64,000 bases of DNA from an uncultured Rhodospirillaceae bacterium (GTDB taxonomy: Bacteria > Pseudomonadota > Alphaproteobacteria > MPNO01 > UBA830), in assembly GCA_963974055.1 (NCBI GenBank), contig CAXBCP010000001.1, positions 191,471 to 255,470 on the forward strand, given 5' to 3'. The notes under the pieces were generated by a model that worked only from the letters and a program-made list of their open reading frames with translations, searched no databases and was not told the origin of the DNA. This document shows, one piece after another, positions 38,986 to 57,288 of the stretch (within the stretch, counting starts at the first letter, position 1; every line of letters begins with the position of its first letter). The translations under genes were made by a program, and so were the position numbers.

Positions 38986-40683
38986 ATGAAAACTTTGCCT
39001 GATCTGTGGCGTACCGTAATGCCGTTCGCGGCAATGCTGTTTGCCGTCCTTGCCGTCATTTTTTTCGGATCAGGTACCTCGGCCGATATGAGGGTGAAGC
39101 TCAAGGATGGGCGCGTCCTGAATTTGCCGGTCACGCCCGACCAGATCGATTCCGTGACCTTCGGTTCCGGTCCAGCCGGGCCGGTCCCGGCAGAATCGGG
39201 CGCAATGCGCCGGAAACAGCCGGTCGGCCGGGCGGCGGCTCAGATCAAGGCAGACGAAAAAAGTATCCGGACATCGCGGGATGCCGAAAAGCGGGCACTG
39301 GACGCGGCGAAGGCAGCCGGCGCGGCAGCCGATACCGCCCGCGCCGCCGCCGCCCTGGCGGAACGGGAAGCGGCGGCCGCCACAGCGGCGCGGAAATCGG
39401 CGGAAGAGGCAGCGCGCGCCGGCCCCGCTGCAACCCCCGGCCCGGCATCGGCCTTGAATTCGTCGCCGCCGGTTCGCCGCAGTACCGGTAAGCCGGTCAG
39501 GGCGGCGGGGCGTGTCCTGAATATCGGCCCCGGAAAAAAGTACAAACGCCCCAGCGACGCGGCCGGCGCGGCGCAGGACGGAGACACGGTTGAAATCGCC
39601 GCCGGCACCTATAAGGGAGATGTCGCGCAATGGACCGCCAGCAACCTGACGATCCGCGGCGTCGGCGGCCGCGTGCACCTGGATGCGGATGGCCGGTGTC
39701 AGGCGGGCAAGGCAATATGGGTTATCAGCGGCAATGACACCGCAGTCGACAATATCGAGTTTTCGAATTGCCGTGTTCCCGACCGGACCGGTGCCGGCCT
39801 TCTCTTTGAAGGCCGCAATCTGGCGGTGCGCAACAGTTTCTTTCACGACAACGATATGGGGCTTGTGACCGGCAACCGGCAGAAAGGCGACGTGCTGGTC
39901 GAAGGGTCCGAATTCGCCCGCAACATGGCGCCGGATAAAAATGGGCTCGGCCACAATATCTATATCGGCCGCGAGCGCAGCTTTATCCTGCGCAACAGCT
40001 ATGTACACGGAGCGGTCCGGGGCCATGACATCAAATCGCGCGCCCGCGAAAACCGGATATTGTATAACCGCATCGTCGATGGGCCGGCCGGCGCGGCGGG
40101 TTACCTGGTCGATATTGCCGAAGGCGGCCGCGCCTGGCTGGTGGGTAATGTGTTTCACAAGAGCGCCCGGGCGGGCAACCGTCCCGTGGTCAGCTTCGCC
40201 GCGGAGCGGCGGGCCGCCGCCGACCGGATCGCGCTGATCAACAATACGCTCGCCAACGAATTCGACGGCGGCGTCTTTATACAGAACAGGGGTGGCGCGG
40301 CGGCCATACTGATCAACAATATTCTGGCCGGTCCCGTCGATCCCGCAACGGGCCCGGCCGAACTCCGTAACAATCTGATCGTCCGCAACAATCCGATGAT
40401 CCGTCCGCCAACGGCATCGGGCGGCCAGCCGGTAAAGGCATCGGCCGGGAAAGGCCCGCTGTCGGGGAATTTCATCGCGCCCGAGGCGGGTTTCACGAAC
40501 CCCGGTCAAATGGACTTTTCTCTGTCCCGCCGCTCGCCGGCGCGCAATACCGGTGCGGAACCGGGGCTGGTAAATCGGTGGCCGGCGCGCCCGTCCGCGC
40601 ACTATCTTCATCCGCGCCGCCAGGCGCCGCGGCCGAATGACGGCAGGATCGATATCGGCGCCTATGAATATTCGGCCCCGTAG
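38986..40683 (+). CDS. secreted/membrane-anchored right-handed parallel beta-helix protein with Ala-rich coiled linker
   Basis: AGGAGA SD before the ATG. An N-terminal TM/signal (MPFAAMLFAVLAVIFFGSG) is followed by an Ala/Glu-rich ~100 aa segment, then beta-helix coils (NIEFSNC, RNSFFHDN, RNSYVHG, NNTLANE, NNILAG, RNNLIVRNN). The terminal IDIGAYEY motif is common in this fold. Confidence 0.7.
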   Translation: MKTLPDLWRTVMPFAAMLFAVLAVIFFGSGTSADMRVKLKDGRVLNLPVTPDQIDSVTFGSGPAGPVPAESGAMRRKQPVGRAAAQIKADEKSIRTSRDAEKRALDAAKAAGAAADTARAAAALAEREAAAATAARKSAEEAARAGPAATPGPASALNSSPPVRRSTGKPVRAAGRVLNIGPGKKYKRPSDAAGAAQDGDTVEIAAGTYKGDVAQWTASNLTIRGVGGRVHLDADGRCQAGKAIWVISGNDTAVDNIEFSNCRVPDRTGAGLLFEGRNLAVRNSFFHDNDMGLVTGNRQKGDVLVEGSEFARNMAPDKNGLGHNIYIGRERSFILRNSYVHGAVRGHDIKSRARENRILYNRIVDGPAGAAGYLVDIAEGGRAWLVGNVFHKSARAGNRPVVSFAAERRAAADRIALINNTLANEFDGGVFIQNRGGAAAILINNILAGPVDPATGPAELRNNLIVRNNPMIRPPTASGGQPVKASAGKGPLSGNFIAPEAGFTNPGQMDFSLSRRSPARNTGAEPGLVNRWPARPSAHYLHPRRQAPRPNDGRIDIGAYEYSAP

Positions 40684-40686
40684 AAC

Positions 40687-41532
40687 CTAACTGCCGAGAG
40701 TGTCGACCCAGTCGATCGTCAGCGTCGCAACCTCGTCGCGCCAGGCGCGGCGGGAAAACGTGTGGTCGGCGGCAGGCATGTCGCGCCGGGTCAGCCGGTG
40801 GGCGGCGACGAGCCTGCGCCACCGCGGCGAGGCCTTTACGGCGTCGTCGAATTCCCGCGCCGTCAGATCGTTTCCGCTCATGATCAGCAGGACCGGCTGC
40901 GCGAATTTTTCGAGCCCGTCCGCCATCCGGTCCGCCAGGGGGTTTCTGGCGGCGGTATCGGCGCCGCTTTCCGCATGTGCGGCTTTCACTGTGCCCATCA
41001 ACGAACCCGCCGAGCCCGTCAGGTCGAACCGTCCGCGAAGAATCTTGCCCCATAGCGCCCGGCTGAAAATCCGGCTGAGGTAATAGTGGCGAAGCTGGGT
41101 TTTGGCATACCCGCTTTCGCTGCGGACCCAGGGATTCAGCAGCACCGATCCTGCGATGCGACGATCGGCATGGGCGTAGAACAGGATCGCGGACGCGGCA
41201 TCGCACAGCCCCCACAATACGATTTCCTGTATCTCCGGGAGCGCGGCGGTAAAAGCATCCGCCGCGGCGCGAATGTCGTCGTCGATGTTTTCGAATCCGG
41301 CGAACGTGCCGCCGCTGTCGCCGAGCCCGCGATAGTCAAACCGCATTGCCGCAATGCCGTTCTCCGCCAGGGCGCGTGCGAGCAGCAGGAACTGGCGATG
41401 GCTGCCGGTTCGGTATTGCGGGCCGCCGACGACGATCAGCACACCGCGTTTGGCGGGCCGGCCGGGCCGGTGCACGATACCGACAAGGTCGGCATCGCGG
41501 CATTTGAAGGAAACCGGTATTTCTTCGGTCAT
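40687..41532 (-). CDS. alpha/beta hydrolase (exosortase A system-associated hydrolase type)
   Basis: 281 aa from MTEEIPVSFKC. Nucleophile elbow GLCDAAS; HTF near the C-terminus. Its start overlaps the stop of the upstream hydrolase by 4 nt. Confidence 0.7.
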   Translation of the reverse strand: MTEEIPVSFKCRDADLVGIVHRPGRPAKRGVLIVVGGPQYRTGSHRQFLLLARALAENGIAAMRFDYRGLGDSGGTFAGFENIDDDIRAAADAFTAALPEIQEIVLWGLCDAASAILFYAHADRRIAGSVLLNPWVRSESGYAKTQLRHYYLSRIFSRALWGKILRGRFDLTGSAGSLMGTVKAAHAESGADTAARNPLADRMADGLEKFAQPVLLIMSGNDLTAREFDDAVKASPRWRRLVAAHRLTRRDMPAADHTFSRRAWRDEVATLTIDWVDTLGS

Positions 41533-42344
41533 AGCTGCTGCAACGCCTGAAGCGTCCGGTCGATCATCTCCGGCGCCGTGGTGGTTTCCTGAATCGTCCA
41601 GAACGGTTCGCCGGGGCACAGCCGGATATCGATACGGATACCGCTTTCGGTCCAGGCGTCGATGATACGCTGGCTTGCCGGCATGGGCCCGCGTTCCGCG
41701 TCGCCGGTCTCTATCCAGATGACGGTGCTGCCCGGCCGGGGCGTCATATCCGCCAGCCGCAACACATCCAGATCCGCTGCCAGATCGGGATGAATTTCAT
41801 ACCCGGCGACCTCGACGCTTTCGCCTGCCTGCCACATTGCGCGCAGGTCCCTGGTGGTTTCTTTCGCACCGCTGCCCGCCGGACCGCCCGTCAGGCCGGC
41901 GGCCATACGGATGCGCAGGAACTGGTTCAGCATTGTTTCGCCATTGCCCACCGGCTGCCACAGGATCAGCGGTTGGGCCCGGTTGAGGCTCGCGGCGAGT
42001 AGCGCGCCTGCCCGCAGCCCGAAGGAAACCGGCATCTGTCCGGTTTTCTCGGCCAGCCAGAGACCCGCTGAACGGGCGTCTTCCTGCCAGGTTTGCCAGC
42101 GGGCGTCGTAGAAATCGCCGCTGCTGTCGCCGGTGCCCGTCAGGTCGAGCGCCAGGACGCCGTAGCCTGCACCCGCCAGAGCACGCCCGGTCAGATAGGT
42201 CATCCGCCGCGACATGTTCATTTCTTCGGCAAAGGGCGGCAGCAACAGGACGCTGCCCCGGGCCTCATTCTGAGCGGGGTGGTACAGCGCGAACAGCCGT
42301 CGGTCGCCGATCTCGATAAACAGGGGTTGGGGCGCTGCGGTCAT
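41529..42344 (-). CDS. alpha/beta hydrolase (exosortase A system-associated hydrolase type), second paralog
   Basis: 271 aa: LLLPPFAEEMNMSRR...GTGDSSGDF... Minimal alpha/beta hydrolase fold. Co-oriented downstream of the ACP gene. Confidence 0.7.
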   Translation of the reverse strand: MTAAPQPLFIEIGDRRLFALYHPAQNEARGSVLLLPPFAEEMNMSRRMTYLTGRALAGAGYGVLALDLTGTGDSSGDFYDARWQTWQEDARSAGLWLAEKTGQMPVSFGLRAGALLAASLNRAQPLILWQPVGNGETMLNQFLRIRMAAGLTGGPAGSGAKETTRDLRAMWQAGESVEVAGYEIHPDLAADLDVLRLADMTPRPGSTVIWIETGDAERGPMPASQRIIDAWTESGIRIDIRLCPGEPFWTIQETTTAPEMIDRTLQALQQL

Positions 42345-42378
42345 GGTGCAACCGGTATTACCGTTTGCCGCGCAGATG

Positions 42379-42630
42379 TCACGCGGCCAGCTTCTGGTCC
42401 ACGAATTCGGTCAGGCTGCCGACGGATTCAAATGATTCGGCCGAAATTTCGTCGTCTTCGACGAATATATCGAATTGTTCTTCCAGCGCCGTGATCACCG
42501 TGACGACGGCCATCGAGTCGAGTTCGGCTATACTGCCGAGCAGCGGCGTGGATGCCGTGAAATTGTCGACCCTGTCTCCGAGTTGAAGGGTTTCCCCCAA
42601 CACCTGCTTCACGACGTCGATAGTTGCCAT
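42379..42630 (-). CDS. acyl carrier protein
   Basis: 83 aa. The phosphopantetheine attachment motif is LGSIAELDSMAVV (DSM variant of DSL). Four-helix ACP-like composition. Confidence 0.75.
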   Translation of the reverse strand: MATIDVVKQVLGETLQLGDRVDNFTASTPLLGSIAELDSMAVVTVITALEEQFDIFVEDDEISAESFESVGSLTEFVDQKLAA

Positions 42631-42753
42631 TACATTTGCCCCGTACGCATAAATTCATCATTTCAATCAGGTCTTTATATTCCACGCGCGGCGTCTGGAC
42701 AAAGACCAATCGTGGTATCCTTACCGTTATCGGAGCGATCATCGGGAACTTTC

Positions 42754-43461
42754 ATGCGCGTCATTCGTAAATTCAGGGGGTTGGCCGCCGAGTTCGGCTT
42801 TGGCAATGCAGTGCTCTACGTCTTCGGGCTGGCGCTGCGGGGGATATGCCCCGGTGCATCCGTTTATCGCTATTACATCGTTGCGCAGCCGGTGCCGGAC
42901 AAAAACCTGCTGCCGGCCCGGCGCGGCAAGGCGATTGCGGTCCGCGAGCTGAAACCCGGCGATCCGGCGTTTTCGGCCCTGCCGCTCGATCAGGACGTTC
43001 TGGCCTACCGCTTTGCCCAGAACGTGGTCTGTCTCGGCGCGTTCCAGAACGAAAAGCCGATCGGCTGTCTGTGGATGTGTTTCGATTCCTATGACGAAGA
43101 CGAAATCAGGTGCACTTTCCGCCTCGCTCCCGTCGGGCGTGTCTCCTGGGATTTCGACGTTTATCTGCACCCCGACGCGCGGCTCGGTTTTGCCTTTCTG
43201 CGGCTATGGGACGAAGCGAACGCGATTTTGCGCGACCGGGGTATCGCCTGGTCGCTCAGCCGTATTTCCGGCTTCAACCCGGGGTCGATGGCGTCCCATG
43301 CCCGCATGGGGGCGGTTCGCGTGGGAAGTCTGATTGCGCTGAAAGGCCCGAAAAGGCAGCTCGTCTGGAGCACTTATTCGCCCGTTTTCAGCTTCCGGCG
43401 GCTCGACGGAAACCTGCCTTCCTATACCGTTTCTCCGCCCGGGCATGCGGAGACGCGTTGA
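42754..43461 (+). CDS. GNAT-fold acyltransferase-like protein (candidate N-acyl amino acid synthase type)
   Basis: 235 aa from MRVIRKF. Size and position match the small acyltransferase found with ACP and ligase genes in exosortase loci. No strong motif was seen, so the assignment is tentative. Confidence 0.45.
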   Translation: MRVIRKFRGLAAEFGFGNAVLYVFGLALRGICPGASVYRYYIVAQPVPDKNLLPARRGKAIAVRELKPGDPAFSALPLDQDVLAYRFAQNVVCLGAFQNEKPIGCLWMCFDSYDEDEIRCTFRLAPVGRVSWDFDVYLHPDARLGFAFLRLWDEANAILRDRGIAWSLSRISGFNPGSMASHARMGAVRVGSLIALKGPKRQLVWSTYSPVFSFRRLDGNLPSYTVSPPGHAETR

Positions 43462-43519
43462 TCCTGCCGCCATTTCTGCTATTCCCTACGCTGAGTCCAC
43501 TGCGTAAACGGCGCTGCCG

Positions 43520-45091
43520 ATGCTGCTACATGAACTAATCCGAGATTCCGCCCGGCGGACGCCGTCGGCCGACGCGTTGCAGTTCCGCGACGACGTGTGG
43601 AGTTATGGCCGCCTGCACGACGAAGTTCAGCGCTTCGCCGGGTGTCTGGCGGGCCTGGGCGTCGCGCGGTCCGACCGGGTGGCGGTGTTTCTCGACAAAC
43701 GTTTCGAGACGGTCGTCGGCACGTTCGGTGCGGCGGCGGCAGGCGCCGTGTTCGTGCCGGTCAATCCGATCCTCAAGCCGGCCCAGGTCGGCCATATCCT
43801 GACCGACTGCAATGTCCGGGTACTGGTGACCTCTGCGGCGCGCCTGACCGCGCTGGTGGAAACGCTCGGCGACTGCCCCGATCTCCGACACGTTATTCTG
43901 ACCGACGGCACGCCGGCCGATCACAGGGTCGCAGGCGTGGCAATTCACGGCTGGGACGATCTGAATCCCGGCGGCGTGCCCCATGCGGTGATCGACGACG
44001 ATATGGTGTCGATCCTGTATACGTCCGGCAGCACCGGGCGGCCCAAGGGCGTGGTGCTGTCGCACCGGAACATGGTGGCCGGCGCGGTCAGCGTCAGCAC
44101 CTATCTGGAGAACGTACCCGAAGACCGGATTCTCTGTGTCCTGCCGTTCAGTTTCGACGCCGGCTACAGCCAGCTGACGACCGCGTTCCGCGTGGGTGCC
44201 TGCGCCGTGCTGATGAACTACCTGTTGCCCAACGACGTGGTAAAAACCGCGGCGGCGCAGCGCATAACCGGGATCGGCGGCGTGCCGCCGCTCTGGAACC
44301 AGCTCGCCGGGCTGACCTGGCCCGAAGACGCGGTTGCGACCATGCGCTATTTCACCAATACCGGCGGCCACATGCCGCGCGCGACCCTTGACCGTCTGCG
44401 CGGGTCCCTCGTCAACGCGAAACCCTATCTGATGTACGGGCTGACCGAAGCGTTCCGGTCGACCTATCTGCCCCCGGAAGAGGTCGACAACCGGCCGGAT
44501 TCCATGGGCAAGGCGATCCCCAATGCCGAAATCCAGGTCGTCAACGAAAAGGGCGAAATCTGCGGCGCCGACGAGCCCGGCGAACTGGTGCATCGCGGCG
44601 CGCTTGTCTCGCTCGGCTACTGGAACGACCCGGAGCGCACCGCCGAACGGTTCAAGCCCGCACCGGGCCAGTTATCGGGTCTGCCGATGACCGAGTTCGC
44701 GGTCTGGTCCGGCGATACCGTCCGCAAGGATGCCGACGGCTTCCTCTATTTCGTCGGCCGCCGCGACGAGATGATCAAAAGTTCCGGTTACCGGATCAGT
44801 CCGACCGAGCTCGAAGAGGTGGTTTATTCCTCCGGTGCGGTCAGCGAAGCGGTGGCGCTGGGGCTGCCGCATCCGATGATCGGCCAGGGCATCGTGATTG
44901 TGGCGACCCCGCCGCCGGACGGTGCGCTGGATGCCGAGGCCGTCCTGAAAGCCTGCCGCGCGGACCTGCCGCAATTCATGGTGCCGCATGCGGTTGTCGA
45001 ACGGGCCTCGCTCGACAGGAACCCCAACGGTAAGATTGACCGCAAGAAGCTGTCCGAAGAACTGGCCGGCTTTTTCGAGGAGGAAGTGTGA
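43520..45091 (+). CDS. AMP-dependent acyl-CoA/acyl-ACP ligase (adenylate-forming enzyme)
   Basis: AMP-binding signature ILYTSGSTGRPKGVVLSH. Also YGLTE and the C-terminal GDTVRKDADGFLYFVGRRDEMIKSSGYRISPTELE. Confidence 0.85.
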   Translation: MLLHELIRDSARRTPSADALQFRDDVWSYGRLHDEVQRFAGCLAGLGVARSDRVAVFLDKRFETVVGTFGAAAAGAVFVPVNPILKPAQVGHILTDCNVRVLVTSAARLTALVETLGDCPDLRHVILTDGTPADHRVAGVAIHGWDDLNPGGVPHAVIDDDMVSILYTSGSTGRPKGVVLSHRNMVAGAVSVSTYLENVPEDRILCVLPFSFDAGYSQLTTAFRVGACAVLMNYLLPNDVVKTAAAQRITGIGGVPPLWNQLAGLTWPEDAVATMRYFTNTGGHMPRATLDRLRGSLVNAKPYLMYGLTEAFRSTYLPPEEVDNRPDSMGKAIPNAEIQVVNEKGEICGADEPGELVHRGALVSLGYWNDPERTAERFKPAPGQLSGLPMTEFAVWSGDTVRKDADGFLYFVGRRDEMIKSSGYRISPTELEEVVYSSGAVSEAVALGLPHPMIGQGIVIVATPPPDGALDAEAVLKACRADLPQFMVPHAVVERASLDRNPNGKIDRKKLSEELAGFFEEEV

Positions 45092-46353
45092 GCGACGCTC
45101 CCGAAGCCAGGAAACGCGAAAAACCGAAACCGGTCACGGCGCCGATAGAACAGTTCCCGGTCGAGAACGGGGACCTTGTCATCGGCGGCGTGCCGTTATC
45201 CCGTCTGGCCCGTCAGATCGGGGCGACGCCGTTTTTCGCCTATGACCGCGATCTGATCTCGCAACGGATCGCCCATCTGCGCGAAATCCTGCCCGATGGC
45301 GTGAACCTGAATTTCGCGATGAAGGCGAACCCCATGCCGGCCGTCGTGCAGCATGCCGCGGGACTGGTCGACGGAATTGACGTCGCCTCCGCCCTCGAAA
45401 TGAACGTGGCGCTCGACACCACCATGCCGCGCCATCGCATCAGTTTCGCCGGGCCCGGCAAGACCGAGGCGGAGATCGCGCGCGCCGTAGCGGCGGGGAT
45501 CGTGCTCAATCTTGAATCCGCGAACGAAATGGAAATCGTTGCCCGCCACGCCGCGGAACAGGGTGTCGTGGCGCCGGTCGCCGTTCGGGTGAATCCGGAT
45601 TTCGAACTCAAGACGTCCGGCATGAGGATGAGCGGCGGGCCGAAGCAGTTCGGTGTCGATGCCGAATGCGTGCCCGACATGCTCCGGCGCATGGGCGAAC
45701 TGCCGACCCTGGAATTTCATGGCTTTCATATATTCAGCGGTTCGCAGAATCTGCGGGCGGAAGCGCTGATCGAAGCCCAGACGAACACGGTCGATCTTGC
45801 AATCGCGCTGGCGGCCGTTGCGCCCGGACCCGTAAGACACCTCAATATCGGCGGCGGGTTCGGCATCCCGTATTTCCCCGGCGACACGCCGCTCGACCTC
45901 ACGCCGGTTGCCGAGAATCTCGACGGATTGATGGCGCGGATCAAAACCGAGCTGGGCGATGTCCGCGTCGTTATCGAACTCGGACGCTATATCGTCGGCG
46001 AGGCCGGCATCTATGTCAGCCGGATCGTCGACCGCAAGGAATCGCGCGGAAAGGTATTCCTGATCACCGATGGCGGGCTGCATCATCAGCTCGCTGCATC
46101 GGGCAATTTCGGGCAGGTGATCCGGAAGAACTATCCCGTCGCGATCGGCAATCGCATGGACGAGCCGGCGACCGAAACCGCGGACATCGTCGGCTGTTTG
46201 TGCACGCCGCTCGATCTTCTCGGCGACAAGGTGGACATACCGGCGGCCGCGGTCGGCGACCTTGTGGTGCTGTTTCAGTCGGGCGCCTATGGGCTGACGG
46301 CCAGTCCCACGGCTTTTCTCAGCCATCCGGTGCCGCTCGAGGTGCTGGTTTGA
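45088..46353 (+). CDS. PLP-dependent decarboxylase, Orn/DAP/Arg decarboxylase fold-III family
   Basis: GTG start overlaps the ligase stop (GTGA). Motifs as in diaminopimelate decarboxylase: NFAMKANP with the PLP-lysine, GGGFGIPY, and the C-terminal CTPLD. Confidence 0.85.
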   Translation: MSDAPEARKREKPKPVTAPIEQFPVENGDLVIGGVPLSRLARQIGATPFFAYDRDLISQRIAHLREILPDGVNLNFAMKANPMPAVVQHAAGLVDGIDVASALEMNVALDTTMPRHRISFAGPGKTEAEIARAVAAGIVLNLESANEMEIVARHAAEQGVVAPVAVRVNPDFELKTSGMRMSGGPKQFGVDAECVPDMLRRMGELPTLEFHGFHIFSGSQNLRAEALIEAQTNTVDLAIALAAVAPGPVRHLNIGGGFGIPYFPGDTPLDLTPVAENLDGLMARIKTELGDVRVVIELGRYIVGEAGIYVSRIVDRKESRGKVFLITDGGLHHQLAASGNFGQVIRKNYPVAIGNRMDEPATETADIVGCLCTPLDLLGDKVDIPAAAVGDLVVLFQSGAYGLTASPTAFLSHPVPLEVLV

Positions 46354-48233
46354 CGGGACTCGTCGGATGGGCCGGCGCGGGTCGGTCGGGCGACCACGTT
46401 TACGAGCTTTCTTCCCCCGATATCGTCGCCCGGATGCTCGATGCCGGACATGCGCATGAAGGATCGGCACGGCAGTCGGAAGCGGTTGCCGCTGCCGGTA
46501 TCGGCGCGCAGGGCTGGTCGTCCGACGTTTCCGTGCACAGCGCCGGGGATATCCTTGCCGTCGTTTACGGCCGGGCGCGGTGGCGCGGCGAAAAATACAG
46601 GCAGCGTGCGGTCGCGCAGGGCGGCGCAGCGGCCCTTATCGAAGCCTGGCGCGACAAGGGAATATCGCTGTTCGATATTGTCGGCGGTCCGGCGTCTTTT
46701 GCGATCGTCGATTCCGCCCGGCATGAAGCGCTGGTCGCTATCGATCGTATCGGTGTCCAGCAGATGTCGTTTGCAACAACCCCTGCCGGGGCATTTGTCT
46801 TTGCATCCGATGCGCGGGCTGTCTGCAGTCATCCGGCGCTCAACCCGGATATTTCCCGTCAGGCATTGTTCAATTATCTCTATTTTTATATCAGCCCGGG
46901 ACCGGCAACGGTTTTCGAGGATATCGAAAAGCTCCAGCCCGGACAGTATGCCCATTTCCGCAACGGCGCGGTGTCGCGGTCGTTCTATTGGCAGCCCGCA
47001 TATACCGAATTCTCCGACCGCGATGACGGGGCCTGTGCCGAGCAGGTGCGCGACAGCCTGAGGGACGGTGTCGGGGCGGCGGTGGCCGCGGTTCCCGGTG
47101 CAGAGCCGGGCGCCTTTCTGAGCGGCGGGCTCGACAGCACGTCGGTTGCGGGTTATCTGGCCGGCCACCGGCCCGGGGCGAAGGGTTTCACGATCGCCTT
47201 CCCGGAAGAAAAATACAACGAACTGCCCTGGGCGGAGGCGGGTGCCCGGCGGTTCGGCATTGATCATGTCACACATGTGCTGACGCCGGCGGAAACGGTG
47301 GACGCGATTCCGGGAATCGTCGAGGCGCATGACGAACCCTATGGCAACTCGTCGTCCGTGCCGGCTTATATCTGTGCGCGGGTGGCGCGGGATAACGGGG
47401 TCGGGCTTCTGCTTGCCGGCGACGGCGGCGACGAAATATTCGCCGGAAACGAGCGCTACGTCGAGCAGCGCCGCTACGATGCATGGCGCCGTATCCCGTC
47501 ACCGTTCCGCAGGTTACTGCACGGACTGCTGCTCAACGGGGCCGGCCGCAATACGGGCGACGGCGTGCTGGCGCGGGCCACCGCCTATGCAAACCGGGCG
47601 GAGACACCGCTGCCCGACAGGCTGCAGGCTTACAACATCATCGCGACATCTGGATTGTCGCGTCTGTTCCATCCCGATTTCCTGGCGGCGATCGACCCCG
47701 GAGAGCCGCTGCGGATCGCGCGCGAGATCTATCACCGGCCCGACGGCGCTACGGAGCTGAAACGTATGCAGTTTCTCGATCTCCACATAACGCTTGCGGA
47801 TAACGATCTGAGGAAGGTCAACAGGGCGTGCGAGCTCGCCGGCGTCCGCGTCGCCTATCCGATGCTTGACGAAGACCTCGTTTCGTTTGCGGCGGCGATC
47901 CCGTCGGCAACGTTGTTGCCCCAGCGCCGGCTGCGCGGCTTCTACAAGGACACGATGGCAGGGTTTTTGCCGCCGGAAATTCTGAGCAAACAAAAGCACG
48001 GCTTCGGCATGCCGTTTTCCGAATGGACCCGCGCGCCGGGCGATCTTCGCGATATGGCCGAAGAGGGGCTTCGGGCTTTTGCGACCCGCGATATTCTTGC
48101 GGACGGGATTATCGACGAGATCCGGTCCGATCTGACCGGCGTCCGAGAAAGCCGGTTCGGCGGGCTGATCTGGGACGTCATGATGCTGGAATTGTGGCTG
48201 TCGCGTCATTCAGATATTGCGACACTACATTGA
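46350..48233 (+). CDS. asparagine synthase (AsnB) family protein lacking the N-terminal catalytic cysteine
   Basis: TTG start overlaps the decarboxylase stop (TTGA). The N-terminus is (M)TGLVGWAG; canonical AsnB begins MCGIAGW. The C-terminal synthetase domain is intact (FLSGGLDSTSV PP-loop, ELPWAE..., YKDTMAGFLPPEIL). The 855-aa ORF-track frame is the same reading frame read through the preceding gene. Confidence 0.7.
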   Translation: MTGLVGWAGAGRSGDHVYELSSPDIVARMLDAGHAHEGSARQSEAVAAAGIGAQGWSSDVSVHSAGDILAVVYGRARWRGEKYRQRAVAQGGAAALIEAWRDKGISLFDIVGGPASFAIVDSARHEALVAIDRIGVQQMSFATTPAGAFVFASDARAVCSHPALNPDISRQALFNYLYFYISPGPATVFEDIEKLQPGQYAHFRNGAVSRSFYWQPAYTEFSDRDDGACAEQVRDSLRDGVGAAVAAVPGAEPGAFLSGGLDSTSVAGYLAGHRPGAKGFTIAFPEEKYNELPWAEAGARRFGIDHVTHVLTPAETVDAIPGIVEAHDEPYGNSSSVPAYICARVARDNGVGLLLAGDGGDEIFAGNERYVEQRRYDAWRRIPSPFRRLLHGLLLNGAGRNTGDGVLARATAYANRAETPLPDRLQAYNIIATSGLSRLFHPDFLAAIDPGEPLRIAREIYHRPDGATELKRMQFLDLHITLADNDLRKVNRACELAGVRVAYPMLDEDLVSFAAAIPSATLLPQRRLRGFYKDTMAGFLPPEILSKQKHGFGMPFSEWTRAPGDLRDMAEEGLRAFATRDILADGIIDEIRSDLTGVRESRFGGLIWDVMMLELWLSRHSDIATLH

Positions 48234-48299
48234 TCGTTTGCTTTTTGGGGCTATTATGCAGCCCGACATTTGGTGAGTTACGTTTGGTCGCGACAAAAA

Positions 48300-48935
48300 A
48301 TGGTGGGCGAAATGTTGTGGAATAGGTTTGGCGGAGCGCTGATGGTGCTGTGCGTGGCGGCTCTGGCAGGCTGTTCCTCGCTTGAGGAACTTCCGACGGC
48401 AAAGCCCGTTTCCGAGACGGAAGAGCTCGAGACCGAATACCGGATCGGCTCCGACGATTCGCTTCAGATATTCGTCTGGCGGAACCCGGAACTGTCGAAC
48501 AGCGTTGCGGTGCGTCCCGACGGCAAGATAACTATTCCGTTGATCGAGGACCTGCCTGCGACCGGCAAGACGCCGACCGAGCTGGCCCGCGATATCGAGA
48601 AACAGCTCAGCGTTTATATTCAGGACCCCATCGTCACCGTCATTATGCGGGGATTTGTCGGTCTGCCGAAGGACAGGGTCCGGGTCGTCGGCGAAGCGGC
48701 GCAGCCCCAGGCGCTGCCATACCGGTCGACGATGACGTTGCTCGATATCATGATCTCCGTCGGCGGGCTTACCGATTTTGCCGATGGCAACCGCGCCACC
48801 ATATCGCGGCTGGTCGACGAGGACTTGAAGCAGTTCCGGGTGCGGATCGACGACCTGCTTCGCGCCGGCGACATGTCGGCGAATGTCCGGATCATGCCGG
48901 GCGACGTTATCGTTATCCCCGAAGCGTGGTTCTGA
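48300..48935 (+). CDS. polysaccharide export outer-membrane lipoprotein (Wza/EpsE-like, PEP-CTERM-locus type)
   Basis: Lipoprotein signal ...VLCVAALAGC. Poly_export motif YRIGSDDSLQIFVW...PDGKITIPLI. A SLBB domain follows. Start could be ATG 48300 or 48312. Confidence 0.8.
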   Translation: MVGEMLWNRFGGALMVLCVAALAGCSSLEELPTAKPVSETEELETEYRIGSDDSLQIFVWRNPELSNSVAVRPDGKITIPLIEDLPATGKTPTELARDIEKQLSVYIQDPIVTVIMRGFVGLPKDRVRVVGEAAQPQALPYRSTMTLLDIMISVGGLTDFADGNRATISRLVDEDLKQFRVRIDDLLRAGDMSANVRIMPGDVIVIPEAWF

Positions 48936-49428
48936 TCCGACAGGACGGTGCCGTTGGCTGCAAAAATGTTGCAGTTTGTTGCAGCGATATCCATCTCCCA
49001 TTCTGCGCGGCTTTCCGTTTGCATATATATTACATGATTGGAAATTGTGTCCTGACGGTGAAAGTTGCATAAGCTGTTGATAAACAACAATATTCTGGGG
49101 CTGTTGGCTACCGCCCCGGCGCGGCGTTCCGGCCGGCCGCGGGGGCGACCGTCTCTCTTCATGGTTAACGGCGGCCCGATCATGTTATTGAATTTGTAGA
49201 GAATTGTTGCTAGTTTACGAATTGTAGGGTGATAGTGGGTTAGATGTGGACAGCTATCTATCTAGGTGAACTGGGCGCTGGCTGAATATCGGCGGCGCTC
49301 GCGTATTTGAGTAGGCAATGTGGTGTGTAGAGTGTCTGGGATCCGCGTATTGCGAATGAATGGGCCACGGAAGCAAGGCGTCCGTCGGTCGGCAGTTGTC
49401 TTAAGCCGTAAGTGGGGGGGGCACGTAG
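48936..49428. promoter_or_regulatory. 493-bp AT-rich intergenic region upstream of epsF with direct repeats (candidate regulatory region)
   Basis: GTTGCAG occurs twice, 3 nt apart, at 48964-48980. A TTGCATATATATTACATGA element lies at 49017-49035. Direct repeats GAATTTGTAGAG and GAATTGTAGGG occur at 49190-49201 and 49219-49229. A G8 tract precedes the epsF ATG. Confidence 0.3.
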
Positions 49429-51051
49429 ATGAGTGAATTATACGTACAAATCCTCGCTTATCTTACGTCTATCTGGCGCAGGCGGTGGTATGCGCTCGCA
49501 ATTTCTTGGCTGGTCTGCGGTGCCGGCTGGACAATGGTTGCCGGCCTTCCCGACAAGTATGAATCCCAGGCCCGTGTTTATGTCGACATGGATACGATGC
49601 TTGGCCCGCTGATGAAGGGCATCGCGGTCCAGGTCAACATGTTCCAGCAGATCGACATCATGCAGCGTACGCTGCTGAGCCGCCCCAATCTTGAAAAGGT
49701 CATTCTGATGACCGACCTCGACCTCAAGATAAAATCGGAAGGCGAGAAAGAAGCGCTGATCGAGAAACTCGCGAATTCGATTTCGATTCGCCAGCAGGGT
49801 CGCAACCTGTTCCGGGTCGCCTATGACGACCGTGAGCCCGCGATCACAAAGCGCGTCGTTCAGGCGGTGTTGCAGATTTTCGTCGAGAGTAATCTGGGGT
49901 CCAGCCGAAAGGATATGGATTCCACGCGGCGTTTCCTGTCCGACCAGATCAAGGATTACGAACGCCAGCTCGAACTTGCGGAAAACAAACTCGCGACCTT
50001 CAAACGCAAAAATCTCGGCATGCTCCCCGGCGAGGGAAACTATTATTCGCACATGCAGGCCATGCGGGCGCAGCACAAGCGTACCGAAGCCCAGATTGCG
50101 GAGGCATCGACCGTTCGCGACGAACTGAAGCAGCAACTGACTTCTGTGCCGCAGTTTCTCGAACTCGCGGGCGGCATGCCCGATATCGCGCTTGCGTCCT
50201 CTGCGGGGGAAGGTCCCGAATCGGATACCCAGATCAGGATCTTCGAGTTGCAGAAGGTCGTCGACAATCTGTTGACGCGCTACACCGACAAACATCCCGA
50301 TGTGGCAACCACGATCAAGCGGCTTGAGGTTCTCAAGAAAGAGCTTGCCGACGAACGCAAGGCCGAATTCGGCCCGACCGATCAGGCGCCCGTCGAACAG
50401 GCGGCTGAAGCCGGCAAGAACGTGGTGCCCAATCCGGTCTACGAACAGGTCAAGATACAGCTCGTCCAGCAGGAGGCGGCGATTGCCGCGTTCAAGCGGC
50501 GCGCCGAAAAGGAAGGCGTCGACGTTAAAAAGTGGGAACAGCTGGCCGGCCGCGTGCCGCAGGTCGAGGCCGAGCTTTCCCGGCTCTCGCGCGATTACGA
50601 AATCGTCAAGAGAGGTTACGAGGAATTGCGCCAGCGGCAGGAATCTGCCCGGCTTGCTTCGGACATGGAAACAAAGGCGCAAAAGGTCCAGTTCCGCATT
50701 GTCGATCCGCCCAAGCTTCCGCTTAAGCCCAGCGGTCCCAACCGGCCTCTTTTCATGGCCGTGGTCCTTGTTGCCGGACTCGGCGCCGGACTGGCATTTG
50801 CCTTCCTGCTGGGACAGGTCAATTCGACCTTCCAGACGGTGCAGCGCCTGCGCCTGACCTTCGCTCTGCCGGTGCTGGGTTGTGTGACCGCAATTACGTC
50901 GGTCGGCGAACGCCGCCGCCGGCGTCGCGAGTTGCTCGGTTTCGGGCTGGTTGCGGCAAGCTTGATCGTTGCTTTCGGTGGGCTCCTCATGGTTGAAGTT
51001 ATGGGGGCAAATGGCTTGCTAGCGACCGTCAAGGGGCTTAGCATCGTCTAA
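49429..51051 (+). CDS. polysaccharide chain length determinant protein (Wzz/EpsF-like, PEP-CTERM locus subfamily)
   Basis: 540 aa. An N-terminal TM (WYALAISWLVCGAGWTMVAGL) is followed by a long coiled-coil periplasmic region and a C-terminal TM (LFMAVVLVAGLGAGLAFAFLLG). Confidence 0.8.
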   Translation: MSELYVQILAYLTSIWRRRWYALAISWLVCGAGWTMVAGLPDKYESQARVYVDMDTMLGPLMKGIAVQVNMFQQIDIMQRTLLSRPNLEKVILMTDLDLKIKSEGEKEALIEKLANSISIRQQGRNLFRVAYDDREPAITKRVVQAVLQIFVESNLGSSRKDMDSTRRFLSDQIKDYERQLELAENKLATFKRKNLGMLPGEGNYYSHMQAMRAQHKRTEAQIAEASTVRDELKQQLTSVPQFLELAGGMPDIALASSAGEGPESDTQIRIFELQKVVDNLLTRYTDKHPDVATTIKRLEVLKKELADERKAEFGPTDQAPVEQAAEAGKNVVPNPVYEQVKIQLVQQEAAIAAFKRRAEKEGVDVKKWEQLAGRVPQVEAELSRLSRDYEIVKRGYEELRQRQESARLASDMETKAQKVQFRIVDPPKLPLKPSGPNRPLFMAVVLVAGLGAGLAFAFLLGQVNSTFQTVQRLRLTFALPVLGCVTAITSVGERRRRRRELLGFGLVAASLIVAFGGLLMVEVMGANGLLATVKGLSIV

Positions 51052-51066
51052 CTTCGGGGTAGGCGA

Positions 51067-52905
51067 TTGACCGATAATGATTCACCGCGTCGCGGGGCGA
51101 CCGAGGGCGGAAATTCTTCTTCGCCCCCATCTTCGTCTGTTGAAAAAGCGGCCGAACGGATGACCCGTGATCCCGGGGCAGACCGGAAAACAGGCGTTGG
51201 GAACGACTCTCCTCCGCAACGGCAGAACCCGGCGAGCAGCATAGAGCGTTTTCTGGATACGGCTGACGGCGGCGTCGCCGACGAGGGGCCCTCCGGCCCG
51301 GCCCGGTTCCAGGATCCCGGCGCCGACTCGGATGTGCCCGCCCGGAACACCCACATTCCGCAGGACGAGCCCGGACCCGGTTTGGATGCCGATTCAGCAT
51401 GGCGTGGTCCTGCCGCCGCCCCGCCTCCGCCACAGGGGCTTCCGGAGCATGGACAGCCGCCGCAATATGCGCCGCCGCCCGGGGCGGGAGATTCGTCTTA
51501 TCCGCAACCCAATCCGGAATCGGTGGAGGGGCCGCCTCCCGGTGCCCGGCCTGACGAGACGCCGCCTGCCGCTCCCGATTACCCCGAACATGCTCCGGCG
51601 CAGTCACCGGTAACGGATCCCGCGGCCGCTGCCGCGGCAGCGATGACCCCCGCCGTAAAACGGAAAGGACTGCTCAGGCGTCGGAGGAAAGCGACGAAGC
51701 CCTGGCATCGCGATCATGCCGCCGACGCGGCTTCAGCGGATGAGGCCGTCGGCAGCGTCCCGCCCGGCGATCCGCGCGATGTGGCACGTTCCGGCAACCC
51801 TGCCGCTGCTGCCGCTCCGCGCCGTCGTGGGATATTCGGTCTGTTCTGGGCCATGATCCGTTTTCTTCTGATCGGTAAAAAGCGCTTAAATGCGCCCAGG
51901 CCGGCCACACCCCGCGGCACGCCGCGTCTTCCGAAATTGGGGCGGCTCCCGGGGTTGTCGCGGCTCAGGGGCATGGGTATTCCCGTTTTGGCTCTTGCGG
52001 GGCGGGTGCCCGGATTCGGAAAGTTAAGACGATCCGCGGCTTCCGCTGTTTCCGCGGTATCAGACAGCGCGTCCGGAAACCCGCGTCCCGCGCCCGTCGA
52101 AACGGCAATGCAGATCCGGCGAAACGCGGCCGGGTCGCATATTCATCGGCCGCTCGATATGAGCCGGCGCGTTGGCCGGTCGGTCGAAATCGACCTCGAA
52201 AAGATCCAGGCGGCCGGCATGGTCACGCCGTTCGGCGAACGCACGCATATCGCGGAGGAATTCCGCCTTATCAAGCGCCCGCTCCTGCTGAACGCCTTCG
52301 AAAAAGGACCCAACGCCATCCGCAACGGGAATGTCATCATGGTCGCGAGTTCGCGTTCCGGTGAAGGCAAGACGTTCATGGCGGTGAACCTCGCCATGAG
52401 CATTGCTTCTGAACGCGATCTGACGGTTCTGTTGATCGACGCCGACGTTGCGAAACCCGATATTCCGAACGTTCTCGGGTTCGAAGCCGATCTCGGCCTA
52501 GTCGATCTGATTGCCGATGACCGCATCGATATGTCCGATGTGATCATGCGAACCAATATCGAGAATCTCAGCGTGATGCCGGCCGGCCGGCCACATCACC
52601 TCGCGACGGAACTGCTGGCCAGCGAACGGATGGGCAATCTGGTATCGGAGCTTTCCCTCCGGTATCCCGAGCGTGTCGTCATTATGGATTCCCCGCCCGC
52701 ATTGCTCAGCAGCGTGGCGGGAGTTTTGGCGCTCAATGTCGGCCAGACGTTGTTCGTCGTCGAGGCCGAGCGGACCTCCCAAACGGCGGTCGATAGTGCG
52801 ATAGGTCTTGTTAGTGCTTGCAAAAACATCAACCTCTTGCTCAATAAGAGTCGCCCGCTTGGGGGCGGCGAACGTTTTGGGTCCTATCAGAACAGCTACT
52901 ATTGA
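51067..52905 (+). CDS. BY-kinase-type P-loop ATPase (EpsG-like tyrosine autokinase) with ~330-aa proline-rich insert
   Basis: TTG start with a GGGGTAGG SD. N-terminal SSVEKAAERM motif. A proline-rich low-complexity region spans roughly aa 40-370. The C-terminal kinase has Walker A SRSGEGKTF, A' VLLIDADV, Walker B VIMDSPP, and a terminal Tyr cluster YQNSYY. Confidence 0.7.
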   Translation: MTDNDSPRRGATEGGNSSSPPSSSVEKAAERMTRDPGADRKTGVGNDSPPQRQNPASSIERFLDTADGGVADEGPSGPARFQDPGADSDVPARNTHIPQDEPGPGLDADSAWRGPAAAPPPPQGLPEHGQPPQYAPPPGAGDSSYPQPNPESVEGPPPGARPDETPPAAPDYPEHAPAQSPVTDPAAAAAAAMTPAVKRKGLLRRRRKATKPWHRDHAADAASADEAVGSVPPGDPRDVARSGNPAAAAAPRRRGIFGLFWAMIRFLLIGKKRLNAPRPATPRGTPRLPKLGRLPGLSRLRGMGIPVLALAGRVPGFGKLRRSAASAVSAVSDSASGNPRPAPVETAMQIRRNAAGSHIHRPLDMSRRVGRSVEIDLEKIQAAGMVTPFGERTHIAEEFRLIKRPLLLNAFEKGPNAIRNGNVIMVASSRSGEGKTFMAVNLAMSIASERDLTVLLIDADVAKPDIPNVLGFEADLGLVDLIADDRIDMSDVIMRTNIENLSVMPAGRPHHLATELLASERMGNLVSELSLRYPERVVIMDSPPALLSSVAGVLALNVGQTLFVVEAERTSQTAVDSAIGLVSACKNINLLLNKSRPLGGGERFGSYQNSYY

Positions 52906-52932
52906 CCCGTAGCGGTTCGGGCGGAGGGTCGG

Positions 52933-54429
52933 TTGGGCGACGACGGCAAGGGATATAACAGAATCGGCACGGTCGCCTGCAGCGCCGTTGCAGTCCCTGT
53001 GCTGTTCGCAGTTTCGCTGTTGCCGACGATTTTTGCGGCGGCGCCGGCCCATGCAGGCGATTGGTCCATATCCCCTGCAATCGGCACAACGGGCACCTTT
53101 TCCGATAACGCAAATGGCGCGACGGACAGGGAAGACCGGAATTCGGATCAGCTATTTACCGTTTCGCCGGCAATCAATGTCCGGGGCAGCGGCGGGCGGG
53201 TATCGCTGAACCTCGCCTATAGCCATAACCGCTTTTATTCCCGCCAGGATACGGCGCAGGGCTCGTCGACAAACAACCTCAGTGCAAACGGCCAGGCGGA
53301 AATTTGGGAGCGCTCTGCATTCGTGAACGTGACGTCGTCGATCACCCGCCAGGTTGTCGATCCGGCAGAGTCGGTGTCGACAACGGATACCGGGTCCGAC
53401 GCGAACAGGACGACGGTCCGGACGGTGTCGATCCAGCCGTTTTTCCTGCATCATTTCGGCAACTGGCTGGAGACGGAATCGCGGACGTCGTTCAATTTCA
53501 CGCAGAGCGAATCCGATGAGATCACGAATACCGAGTCTCTCGGCGAAACATTTACCGTCAATAGCGGAAACCGGTTCACGCTGTTCACGTTCGGCGGTTC
53601 GCTGAACCGCCAGAAAGAAATACGTGCAAACGGCGAACCGCGGTCGATTTCGACCACGCTGAATACGAATTACCGGTACCAGGTCAGCCGCAAGCTGTCG
53701 TTGATCAGTTCGGTCGGCTGGGAAACCATCGACGATCCCGCGCTCAGCGAGGAGCCCAACGGCATTATCTGGGAAGTCGGGTTCTCCGCGCAGCCCAGTT
53801 CGCGGTCGTCGCTGGAATTCACGGTCGGCGACCGATTCGAAACCACGACCTACGGGTTGAGCGCAAGCTATCGCCTTTCGGTCCGTTCCAACGTTTCCGC
53901 GTCCTATAACGAATCGATCACGACGTCCCAGGAACAACTGAACGAAGACCTCAGTTTTATCGGTACCGATGCCAATGGGCAGCAGATCGACCTGCGGACA
54001 TTGCAGCCATTCGACGCGTCGGCCAGCGAACTCGGTTTCCAGACGTCCCTTTTCCGCCAGAAGGTTCTGTCGGTCGATTTCAACACAACCCGGCGCCGCG
54101 GCAGCTATTCGGCGGGATTTAACTGGGAAAGGCGGACGACCGATTCCACGGGTGTCCTCGAAAGGGTGCTGGGGATGAACCTGTCGGCATCCCGGACGCT
54201 GTCTTCACGCCTGTCGACATCGGTTTCGACCGCGCTCCGTTTTATCGACCGCGGCACCCCGGACCAGCGTGAGGATATCACCCACAGTTTAACTGGTTCC
54301 TTGACTTACCGGTTGATGGAAAATACCAATGCTGCGTTAAGTTACGCACGCAGCCAGACAAGATCGACCGAAGGCAGCAATAACTTTCGGGACAATACGG
54401 TTACAATAAACCTTACCCGCAATTTTTGA
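52933..54429 (+). CDS. outer-membrane beta-barrel protein (PEP-CTERM-locus uncharacterised porin-like family)
   Basis: TTG start with a GGAGGG SD. Signal peptide ...PTIFAAAPAHA. Amphipathic alternating beta-strand pattern rich in S/T/N. C-terminal aromatic ...INLTRNF. Confidence 0.6.
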   Translation: MGDDGKGYNRIGTVACSAVAVPVLFAVSLLPTIFAAAPAHAGDWSISPAIGTTGTFSDNANGATDREDRNSDQLFTVSPAINVRGSGGRVSLNLAYSHNRFYSRQDTAQGSSTNNLSANGQAEIWERSAFVNVTSSITRQVVDPAESVSTTDTGSDANRTTVRTVSIQPFFLHHFGNWLETESRTSFNFTQSESDEITNTESLGETFTVNSGNRFTLFTFGGSLNRQKEIRANGEPRSISTTLNTNYRYQVSRKLSLISSVGWETIDDPALSEEPNGIIWEVGFSAQPSSRSSLEFTVGDRFETTTYGLSASYRLSVRSNVSASYNESITTSQEQLNEDLSFIGTDANGQQIDLRTLQPFDASASELGFQTSLFRQKVLSVDFNTTRRRGSYSAGFNWERRTTDSTGVLERVLGMNLSASRTLSSRLSTSVSTALRFIDRGTPDQREDITHSLTGSLTYRLMENTNAALSYARSQTRSTEGSNNFRDNTVTINLTRNF

Positions 54430-54439
54430 GCGCCAGTAC

Positions 54440-56241: not shown

Positions 56242-56246
56242 AATGC

Positions 56247-57284: not shown

Positions 57285-57288
57285 CCGC

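Follow-up and report, generated by a model that had tools for sequence, protein, structure and literature searches.

What does a conserved group of enzymes make when it lies directly before the export genes of an exosortase A (XrtA) locus? The question is raised here by a stretch of 64,000 nucleotides (hereafter the window) from an uncultured Rhodospirillaceae bacterium (assembly GCA_963974055.1, contig CAXBCP010000001.1, positions 191,471 to 255,470). In this stretch a module of seven genes, arranged in two divergent groups, encodes an acyl carrier protein (ACP), two alpha/beta hydrolases (hydrolase 1 and hydrolase 2), a GNAT-fold acyltransferase, a ligase named 'acyl-CoA ligase', a pyridoxal phosphate (PLP)-dependent decarboxylase and a protein resembling asparagine synthetase (AsnB-like). 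XrtA systems occur widely among environmental bacteria and among those that form flocs in wastewater, and to our knowledge neither the attachment partner of the sorted proteins nor the product of the conserved XrtA accessory enzymes is known. A listing of open reading frames (ORFs) and family scans bore out the seven ORFs, the strands and the gene identities given in a preliminary description of the locus, including the labels 'GNAT-like' and 'Cys-less AsnB', and also its placement of the module in the XrtA locus just before the export genes. Four of the proteins (the ligase, the decarboxylase and both hydrolases) score above the cut-offs of NCBIfam families designated 'exosortase A system-associated', and the co-occurrence of the module with exosortase A is therefore already known from comparative genomics, as that description had said; no NCBIfam model of their own exists for the ACP, the GNAT and the AsnB-like protein. 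We found no paper establishing the product, in agreement with the same source. The explanation that we favour, and consider probable, is thiotemplated chemistry: a beta- or gamma-amino acyl unit would be built on a carrier protein and serve the polysaccharide system of exosortase A.

The first line of evidence comes from the ligase. Among solved structures its top entry is LgrA, whose 260 bits are two adenylation domains summed (118 + 134 bits), and the best single-domain match is VinN (3wvn, 225 bits). When the pocket region alone was compared, VinN (3wv4/3wvn) reached 82 bits (E 3e-22) at 33% identity and the next proteins 43 bits. VinN, the protein of entries 3wv4 and 3wvn, binds 3-methylaspartate and L-aspartate as beta-amino acids, via the side-chain carboxyl group; for this it employs D230, K330 and R331, with the bulkier residues F231 and S299 opposite the loop, and the beta13-beta14 loop that carries K330 and R331 has one residue fewer than that of alpha-amino-acid domains (PMC11253843). 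In the window ligase, D213 of the A4 motif FSFD213AG aligns with the amine-binding D230 of VinN and is present in 41 of 41 orthologues, R313 aligns with R331 and is likewise invariant, and S299 is replaced by T281. The loop aligns with that of VinN gaplessly and at the same length, and a 2-residue HMMER gap separates it from LgrA A2. Invariant across the 41 orthologues are, besides D213 and R313, N280, G282, M305, F312 and K505, while the position of VinN F231 is occupied by Tyr in 8 of the 41 ligases of this type (type 1) and in 12 of 13 of the paralogous type 2 described below. The invariant pocket Asp and Arg fit an amino acid with a second carboxylate, and by its residues and closest match the protein appears to be a free-standing, VinN-type enzyme for amino-acid adenylation.

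The preliminary description had instead proposed acyl activation and, as an example, an N-acyl-polyamine-like or lipid-like product. Spelled out, the ligase would load a fatty acid on the ACP, the decarboxylase would make a free di- or polyamine from diaminopimelate (DAP), lysine or ornithine, the GNAT would N-acylate this amine and the AsnB-like protein would amidate the resulting product, yielding an N-acyl-polyamine-like or lipid-like substituent. Such a scheme agrees with the name 'acyl-CoA ligase', with a match to the long-chain fatty-acid-CoA ligase model (302 bits, below the cut-off of 476) and with the DAP/ornithine decarboxylase fold of its partner; in addition, Craig and co-workers reportedly linked N-acyl amino acid synthases to exosortase systems in 2011. 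However, the ligase keeps the FD-motif Asp that binds the substrate amine and matches VinN best, and its invariant pocket Arg would suit a carboxylate, not an alkyl chain.

The decarboxylase provides the second line. In Pfam it matches the Orn/DAP/Arg decarboxylase family with both the PLP-binding and the C-terminal domain, and the motifs usual for the fold (AMKAN, GGGFG, ELGR, CTPLD and SGAYG) could be read by eye. Its closest solved relative is BtrK (2j66/7ru7; 243 bits, 36% identity over 374 amino acids, nearly full length), deposited as 'L-glutamyl-[BtrI acyl-carrier protein] decarboxylase', whereas solved DAP decarboxylases reached at most 162 bits. The BtrK clade is related to DAP decarboxylases and lies outside polyamine synthesis (PMC7857480), which again speaks against a polyamine product. 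In systems such as BtrJ/I/K, CtaD/E/F and FlvN/L/O, glutamate or aspartate is adenylated, tethered to an ACP via the side-chain carboxyl group and alpha-decarboxylated on the carrier to gamma-aminobutyrate (GABA) or beta-alanine (PMC11350588), and formation of the 3-methylaspartyl thioester on VinL must precede decarboxylation by VinO (PMC11284099). The similarity supports a BtrK-like enzyme that would act on a carrier-bound amino acid, not a decarboxylase of the free-substrate DAP/ornithine/lysine type. The latter would be expected if the database names were taken literally: lysine, cadaverine or acyl-CoA for decorating the polysaccharide would then come from an acyl-CoA ligase and a DAP-type decarboxylase of free substrates, while the ACP and hydrolases would belong to a separate O-acylation. 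The NCBIfam names themselves and 241 bits on the LysA model (TIGR01048) are in line with this, as is the location of the ACP and hydrolase genes on the opposite strand, sometimes apart from the ligase-decarboxylase pair; the LysA score is nevertheless below its cut-off of 298 bits, and BtrK is ahead of every DAP decarboxylase by about 80 bits.

The third line emerged from related loci, for which the GNAT-like protein was used as the probe because no existing model covers it. It has 266 relatives among species-representative genomes, from which 80 loci were taken. In 14 of them (Table 1), the same GNAT family is followed by a sister (type 2) module composed of a divergent ACP, a paralogous ligase (35-38% identical to the module ligase; TIGR03098, 507 bits, below cut-off), mutase genes and a decarboxylase paralogue (TIGR03099, 423 bits, likewise below cut-off). 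The mutase genes encode a small MutS-like protein bearing the B12-binding motif DxHxxG (read only in L040), subunit E of methylaspartate mutase (TIGR01503, 426 bits, cut-off 390) and a MutL/GlmL-like protein. The type 2 ACP, found by BLAST in four of ten loci examined, is encoded directly between the GNAT and ligase genes, and both module types are present in four loci. The combination of mutase, adenylation enzyme, ACP and decarboxylase is the vicenistatin route to 3-aminoisobutyryl-ACP (PMC11284099), and by this analogy the sister module is predicted to yield 3-aminoisobutyryl-ACP. Since it encloses a glutamate mutase, the sister module appears to be an amino-acid pathway, which is a further point against a fatty-acyl product. 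Together with the ligase pocket and the affinity of the decarboxylase to BtrK, and with a GNAT outside every NCBIfam model including the exosortase-associated acyltransferase family, it leaves the lipid-like product very improbable in our opinion; the amino-acid-derived, decarboxylated character of the moiety, which the preliminary description had also put forward, accords well with a VinN-like ligase and a BtrK-like decarboxylase.

Within the carrier-protein pathway that we favour, the VinN-like enzyme would first activate an acidic amino acid via its side-chain carboxyl group and load it onto Ser39 of the ACP, and the BtrK/VinO-like decarboxylase would then remove the free alpha-carboxyl group on the carrier, giving beta-alanyl-S-ACP (or GABA-S-ACP). 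Three independent lines point to loading and on-carrier decarboxylation, namely the homology of the ligase pocket, that of the decarboxylase and the sister module with its mutase, and we rate these two steps as probable. No mutase was found in the window, so that aspartate or glutamate would be a more likely substrate than 3-methylaspartate. Aspartate is preferred because the loading enzyme resembles VinN and FlvN; we give it about an even chance, something else would be a possible but clearly weaker candidate, and glutamate appears less likely still.

The ACP itself conserves D38 and S39 in at least 95% of 55 aligned sequences, and no specific NCBIfam model reaches its cut-off on it, the best weak matches being AsbD, OlsHI-ACP and AmcB. 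Its best solved match is an NMR structure, 2lki (88 bits), deposited as 'putative uncharacterized protein', and the carrier family thus has a structure without a functional label. The GNAT matched no Pfam or NCBIfam model, yet its family is well conserved at about 230-245 amino acids; it has the GNAT fold with the beta4-alpha3 pyrophosphate-binding loop, and the residues that never vary are located along beta4, the pyrophosphate loop, beta5 and alpha4. It is matched best by N-acetyltransferases for mycothiol, glucosamine, polyamines and aminoglycosides. These features suggest an active transferase that binds a pantetheine arm. In a third step, the GNAT would use the pantetheine-bound unit to acylate an amine acceptor, or would cap the new amine; the most plausible acceptor would be a de-N-acetylated sugar of the lipid-linked repeat.

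The two small hydrolases do have the alpha/beta fold ascribed to them at the outset, but they are not ordinary serine hydrolases, as both lack the G-x-S-x-G motif. The nucleophile elbow of hydrolase 1 reads W-G-L-C-D-A-A, with the Cys retained in all 46 locus homologues and the motif in 115 of 120 database homologues; Cys139 aligns with the catalytic Ser of solved esterases and DHTF with their His, and an AlphaFold2 model places the Cys at a strand-turn-helix elbow. In hydrolase 2 the elbow is G-L-R111-x-G, the Arg is present in 46 of 46 homologues, and R111 aligns with Cys139 of hydrolase 1 (hhalign, 98% probability), the two proteins being paralogues. Natural fusions of hydrolase 2 to hydrolase 1 (580-670 amino acids, with both motifs) number at least nine among the best 150 representative clusters (Table 1) and suggest a heterodimer, probably with one catalytic Cys and with hydrolase 2 as the non-catalytic partner; some of the fusions may be artefacts that arose when genes were called across the overlap of stop and start. 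One further fusion (P0487) is divergent, its hydrolase 1 part being 36% identical and lacking the Cys motif. Two hydrolase 2 homologues, P0373 (647 amino acids) and P0375 (708 amino acids), carry an unexplained N-terminal extension of 370-430 amino acids, for which Pfam gave only a weak ATP-grasp hint, in P0375.

CmaE/SyrC-type shuttles have an alpha/beta-hydrolase fold and a Cys nucleophile. They offer a functional precedent for hydrolase 1, which differs in having an Arg-containing paralogue as its partner, in some genomes fused to it. As free-standing transferases, such shuttles move aminoacyl groups off carrier-protein thioesters (PMC8748450). A thioester acyl-enzyme would suit a transacylase or an editing thioesterase by analogy, and in a fourth step the hydrolase heterodimer would take the acyl group as a thioester on Cys139 of hydrolase 1 and act in one of these two ways.

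The AsnB-like protein falls below the cut-offs of both TIGR03108 (256 bits against 817) and TIGR01536 (205 against 267), and none of its 120 best homologues has a Cys at position 2. In this protein and 12 aligned homologues the glutaminase residues Cys1, the R49-I52 segment, N74/E76 and D98 are lost: Thr takes the place of the Cys, deletions have removed R49-I52 and D98, and other residues stand at N74 and E76. Positions follow the numbering of E. coli AsnB, and the TIGR03108 protein of the window itself was used as a further reference. Cleavage of a propeptide that would expose Cys5 was considered for the many distant homologues beginning M-S-G-I-C-G-W and was rejected, because R49-I52, N74, E76 and D98 are missing in these homologues as well. 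The PP-loop motif SGGxDS (a conserved FLSGGLDS), D351 and K449 are kept; with a dead glutaminase and an intact PP-loop, the protein is therefore predicted to be an amide ligase for an amine other than glutamine-derived ammonia. The best solved match is the hydroxyamidotransferase 7ylz (83 bits). Glutaminase-less AsnB homologues, namely lasso-peptide cyclases, macrolactam cyclases, beta-lactam synthetase and 7ylz, share the intact PP-loop domain and the absence of the nucleophile, but the scores on the lasso cyclase model (85 against 525 bits) and the macrolactam cyclase model (72 against 300) are far below the cut-offs. In a fifth step, the AsnB-like protein would adenylate a carboxylate and couple it to a non-glutamine amine, possibly the one formed in the second step.

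Conservation of the gene set was assessed in the 37 loci in which the GNAT gene is flanked by 8 kb or more on either side, counting genes within 10 kb of it. Other module genes are found there in 34 of the 37, which argues that the arrangement is not due to chance: a decarboxylase is near the GNAT gene in 27 loci, a ligase in 26, an ACP in 25, hydrolase 1 in 23, hydrolase 2 in 21 and the AsnB-like gene in 17. The frequent proximity of the ACP, and the presence of an ACP alongside ligase and decarboxylase in each of the two paralogous kinds of module, speak against an ACP devoted to an unrelated O-acylation, and we consider it improbable that the database names describe the module literally. 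The hosts of related loci belong to Alpha-, Beta- and Gammaproteobacteria and Acidobacteriota. The full order (hydrolase 1, hydrolase 2 and ACP, divergent from GNAT, ligase, decarboxylase and AsnB-like, then export genes and xrtA) is repeated in a locus with a GNAT homologue 49-55% identical to that of the window, depending on the alignment, and the closest locus, in a metagenome-assembled genome of an uncultured Rhodospirillaceae, shares proteins with 60-93% identity. Start/stop overlaps couple the ligase to the decarboxylase, the decarboxylase to the AsnB-like gene and hydrolase 2 to hydrolase 1.

It is also conceivable that the same loading and decarboxylation steps lead to a diffusible or membrane-bound small metabolite, for example a beta-alanine-containing amide, which would be co-regulated with the locus and remain unattached to the polymer or to PEP-CTERM proteins. 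The characterised relatives (vicenistatin, fluvirucin, butirosin and closthioamide) all belong to small-molecule pathways, module order and content vary between loci, and the GNAT homologue is encoded away from the module in three Nitrosospira multiformis genomes (L045, L062 and L063, around position 10000), all of which would be compatible with such a product. On the other hand, no polyketide synthase (PKS), nonribosomal peptide synthetase condensation domain or other assembly enzyme was seen in the window or the loci examined, the module lies between glycosyltransferase/flippase genes and export genes both in the window and again in distant relatives, and it is the link with exosortase A that defines four of its families. 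A free metabolite is accordingly judged unlikely.

Several points weigh against the amino-acyl pathway for the polysaccharide that we prefer. VinN K330 corresponds to an invariant Phe in the ligase family and VinN F231 to Ala (A214) in the window ligase, so that the substrate may differ from aspartate. The identities to characterised enzymes, both the VinN pocket and BtrK, are modest, and a carrier dependence of the decarboxylase is only suggested by its similarity to BtrK, the only BtrK/VinO/FlvO/CtaF member in the solved-structure set compared. No homologues of VinM, VinK, BtrH or BtrG were identified. Gene content differs among the loci, in particular for the AsnB-like gene, the hydrolases and the ligase, and XrtA-system markers occurred within 10 kb in 11 of the 37 loci (by BLAST only, with limited flanks). 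Every step of the pathway is read from sequence here, and the third to fifth steps are deduced from fold, active-site state and gene coupling, with their roles assigned by analogy.

A complete XrtA/PEP-CTERM locus follows the module at 48270-62112, with every gene above its NCBIfam cut-off; its families are export, chain-length determinant, tyrosine kinase, outer-membrane protein, ATPase, deacetylase, FemAB-like, stp1, XrtA-EpsI and TIGR03108. Upstream of the module are a TIGR03097 O-antigen-ligase-like gene, glycosyltransferases, a flippase, wecB and a gene for a 565-amino-acid beta-helix protein, and a search of the whole window for ORFs ending in a PEP-CTERM tail gave none. By analogy, a beta-alanyl-type amine could belong to a sugar linker of the kind proposed for XrtA loci. 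In its most specific form, the module would build the acceptor of exosortase A, a beta-alanyl unit on a de-N-acetylated sugar of the lipid-linked polysaccharide, whose free primary amine would be the nucleophile that XrtA joins to the cleaved C-terminus of PEP-CTERM proteins; the unit of the sister locus would then be 3-aminoisobutyryl, and installing or editing the linker would be the task of the glutaminase-dead AsnB-like protein and the two Cys/Arg hydrolases. We regard this extension as rather unlikely; if true, it would have its counterparts in the sortase/lipid II cross-bridge and in the linking sugar of the T9SS (type IX secretion system).

Table 1. Positions of the module genes and of XrtA-set genes in the window, together with sister-module loci and hydrolase fusions in other genomes
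Feature	Position or identifier	Strand	Remarks
Hydrolase 1	ORF 40687-41619, likely gene 40687-41532	-	TIGR03100, 357 bits vs cut-off 168
Hydrolase 2	41529-42344	-	TIGR03101, 249 bits vs cut-off 203
ACP, 83 aa	42379-42630	-	PF00550, 24.7 bits vs 20.8; Ser39 in LDSM
Intergenic region, 123 bp	42631-42753	.	Between divergent gene groups
GNAT-fold acyltransferase, 235 aa	42754-43461	+	ATG start; GNAT fold; without Pfam or NCBIfam model
Putative stand-alone adenylation enzyme ('acyl-CoA ligase'), VinN-like	43520-45091	+	TIGR03098, 763 bits vs cut-off 592
PLP decarboxylase, BtrK-like	45088-46353	+	TIGR03099, 602 bits vs cut-off 478
Putative AsnB-like amide synthetase	46350-48233	+	TTG start; dead glutaminase domain; Asn_synthase (PF00733), 219 bits
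Export gene	Starts 48270	+	First XrtA-set gene after module
XrtA-system deacetylase (context)	55372-56241	+	Above NCBIfam cut-off
FemAB-like (context)	56247-57284	+	Above NCBIfam cut-off
stp1 glycosyltransferase (context)	57289-58527	+	Above NCBIfam cut-off
XrtA-EpsI fusion, 542 aa (context)	58496-60124	+	Above NCBIfam cut-off
True TIGR03108 amidotransferase (context)	60178-62112	+	1068 bits vs cut-off 817
Sister-module loci	L040 10001-17100; L028, L032, L034, L037, L043, L048, L052, L056, L057, L067, L074, L076, L077		
Fusions of hydrolase 2 (GLRxG) and hydrolase 1 (WGLCD[AG])	P0385, P0391, P0399, P0405, P0437, P0466, P0476, P0501		580-670 aa
Fusion of hydrolase 2 and hydrolase 1	P0396		By domain matches only

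Some gene calls required a choice between alternative starts. For hydrolase 1, the likely start is ATG 41532, which overlaps the stop of hydrolase 2 as ATGA and is also where an identical database protein of 281 amino acids (P0241) begins. The decarboxylase start overlaps the ligase stop by 4 nucleotides, and the AsnB-like gene starts at TTG 46350, which overlaps the decarboxylase stop (gTTGA) and gives the N-terminus M-T-G-L-V-G-W; the same TTG start is used by an identical Tara Oceans protein of 627 amino acids (P0121). An ORF of 855 amino acids from 45666 was rejected as the AsnB-like gene, as it overlaps the decarboxylase and TTG 46350 is supported instead. The gap between the divergent groups, previously given as 124 bp, measures 123 bp. 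It had been described as a divergent promoter region, of which the divergent layout stands; a sigma-70 scan of 40400-48500 gave no site in the gap, and a sigma-54 pattern search returned a sole match with 2 mismatches, which is at chance level, so that a promoter there is suggested by the gene layout only.

The remaining observations concern the rest of the window and the related loci. An Rfam scan detected no RNA element in the module region, and its sole match in the window was a thiamine pyrophosphate (TPP) riboswitch at 8404-8511 on the minus strand (74 bits against a gathering score of 54). A perfect sigma-54 -24/-12 consensus (TGGCAC-N5-TTGC) lies at 6863-6877 (minus strand), just upstream of a gene for an 822-amino-acid branched-chain amino-acid ABC permease-ATPase fusion at 4352-6820 (minus strand). 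Between 20000 and 32000, at the variable end of the polysaccharide locus, the GC content is 0.51-0.56, compared with about 0.59-0.65 in most other parts of the window; this stretch contains large ORFs at 21095-22870 and 23340-25394, a luciferase-like monooxygenase gene at 26152-27207 and a gene for a metallo-beta-lactamase-fold protein at 27291-28721. The right-handed beta-helix protein upstream of the module (38986-40683, plus strand), which is convergent with hydrolase 1 and matched no NCBIfam model, has homologues beside the module in L002, L003, L007, L021, L031, L052, L053 and the P0024 locus. A trypsin-like peptidase gene (62113-62967, plus strand) comes next after the TIGR03108 amidotransferase gene. 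In L045, the one scanned of the three N. multiformis loci, the GNAT gene is neighboured by genes for a TPMT-like methyltransferase, an aminotransferase, an EamA transporter and an FGE-sulfatase/DinB/methyltransferase fusion that is ergothioneine-like in appearance.

If the proposed pathway is correct, carrier-bound decarboxylation would be extended from antibiotic pathways to the biosynthesis of a cell-surface polymer, and an Asp- or Glu-derived beta- or gamma-amino acyl unit would be expected in or on the polysaccharide, a prediction that is testable by mass spectrometry. The names 'acyl-CoA ligase' and 'hydrolase 1/2' used in databases would then appear to be misleading. In addition, the analysis draws attention to three uncharacterised enzyme types: a new GNAT family, a putative heterodimer of alpha/beta hydrolases with Cys and Arg, and an AsnB-like ligase that lacks glutaminase function. 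The module genes go unmentioned in the 2006 PEP-CTERM paper, and in searches made without the Btr and Vin pathway names we found no paper treating the XrtA ligase, decarboxylase or ACP as a carrier pathway of the Btr/Vin kind, so that the lack of a published link is itself inferred. The gene set is thus known by association; the specific chemistry, which would work like that of the Vin, Flv, Btr and Cta systems but outside those clusters, is the new part.

Comparison with known systems places the module between several of them. The families TIGR03098, TIGR03099, TIGR03100 and TIGR03101, to which four of the window proteins belong, were defined by co-occurrence and bear generic names with no stated chemistry. 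A link between XrtA loci and the T9SS has been discussed. In the T9SS, cargo is joined to an amino-uronic sugar bearing a seryl or glycyl residue, the genes for the linking sugar include VimA, VimE and PGN_1234, and the amino acid of the sugar gives the amine for the sortase-like enzyme (PMC7468200). VimA has been linked to TIGR03019 and PGN_1234 to TIGR03108, and the FemAB-like, deacetylase and TIGR03108 genes of XrtA loci have been speculated to make an analogous amino-acid-modified sugar (PMC7468200). Both TIGR03019 and TIGR03108 are present downstream in the window, as in the proposed XrtA counterpart of the Wbp/Vim pathway; the seven-gene module is not mentioned in that work (PMC7468200), and the role of a beta-alanyl unit as exosortase acceptor is our own suggestion.

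Among carrier-based pathways, butirosin biosynthesis (BtrI, BtrJ, BtrK, BtrH and BtrG) resembles the module in that BtrK is the best solved match of the window decarboxylase and in that an ACP-borne amino-acyl unit is finally attached to the amine of a sugar, an acceptor of the type envisaged for the module. BtrJ is an ATP-grasp ligase, whereas the window loader belongs to the ANL superfamily of adenylation enzymes; moreover, no homologue of BtrH, BtrG or the monooxygenase was seen for the window module, and its substrate is probably aspartate, not glutamate. A vicenistatin-like macrolactam cluster was considered and rejected, as there is no PKS among the window genes scanned (27-62 kb), and VinM, VinK and VinJ went unrecognised in scans, in which their sequences were not compared directly. 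The module also differs from the vicenistatin system in the replacement of K330 and F231 of VinN by Phe and Ala, in its partners (the GNAT, the Cys/Arg hydrolase pair and the glutaminase-dead AsnB-like protein) and in its setting, a Gram-negative exopolysaccharide/exosortase locus instead of an actinomycete antibiotic cluster. Nevertheless, the vicenistatin and fluvirucin pathways likewise encode together an adenylation enzyme (VinN/FlvN), a stand-alone ACP (VinL/FlvL) and a PLP decarboxylase (VinO/FlvO), the window ligase has the Asp and Arg aligned with D230 and R331 and a loop of the same length as VinN's, and the glutamate mutase VinH/VinI of vicenistatin biosynthesis has its parallel in the 14 sister-module loci.

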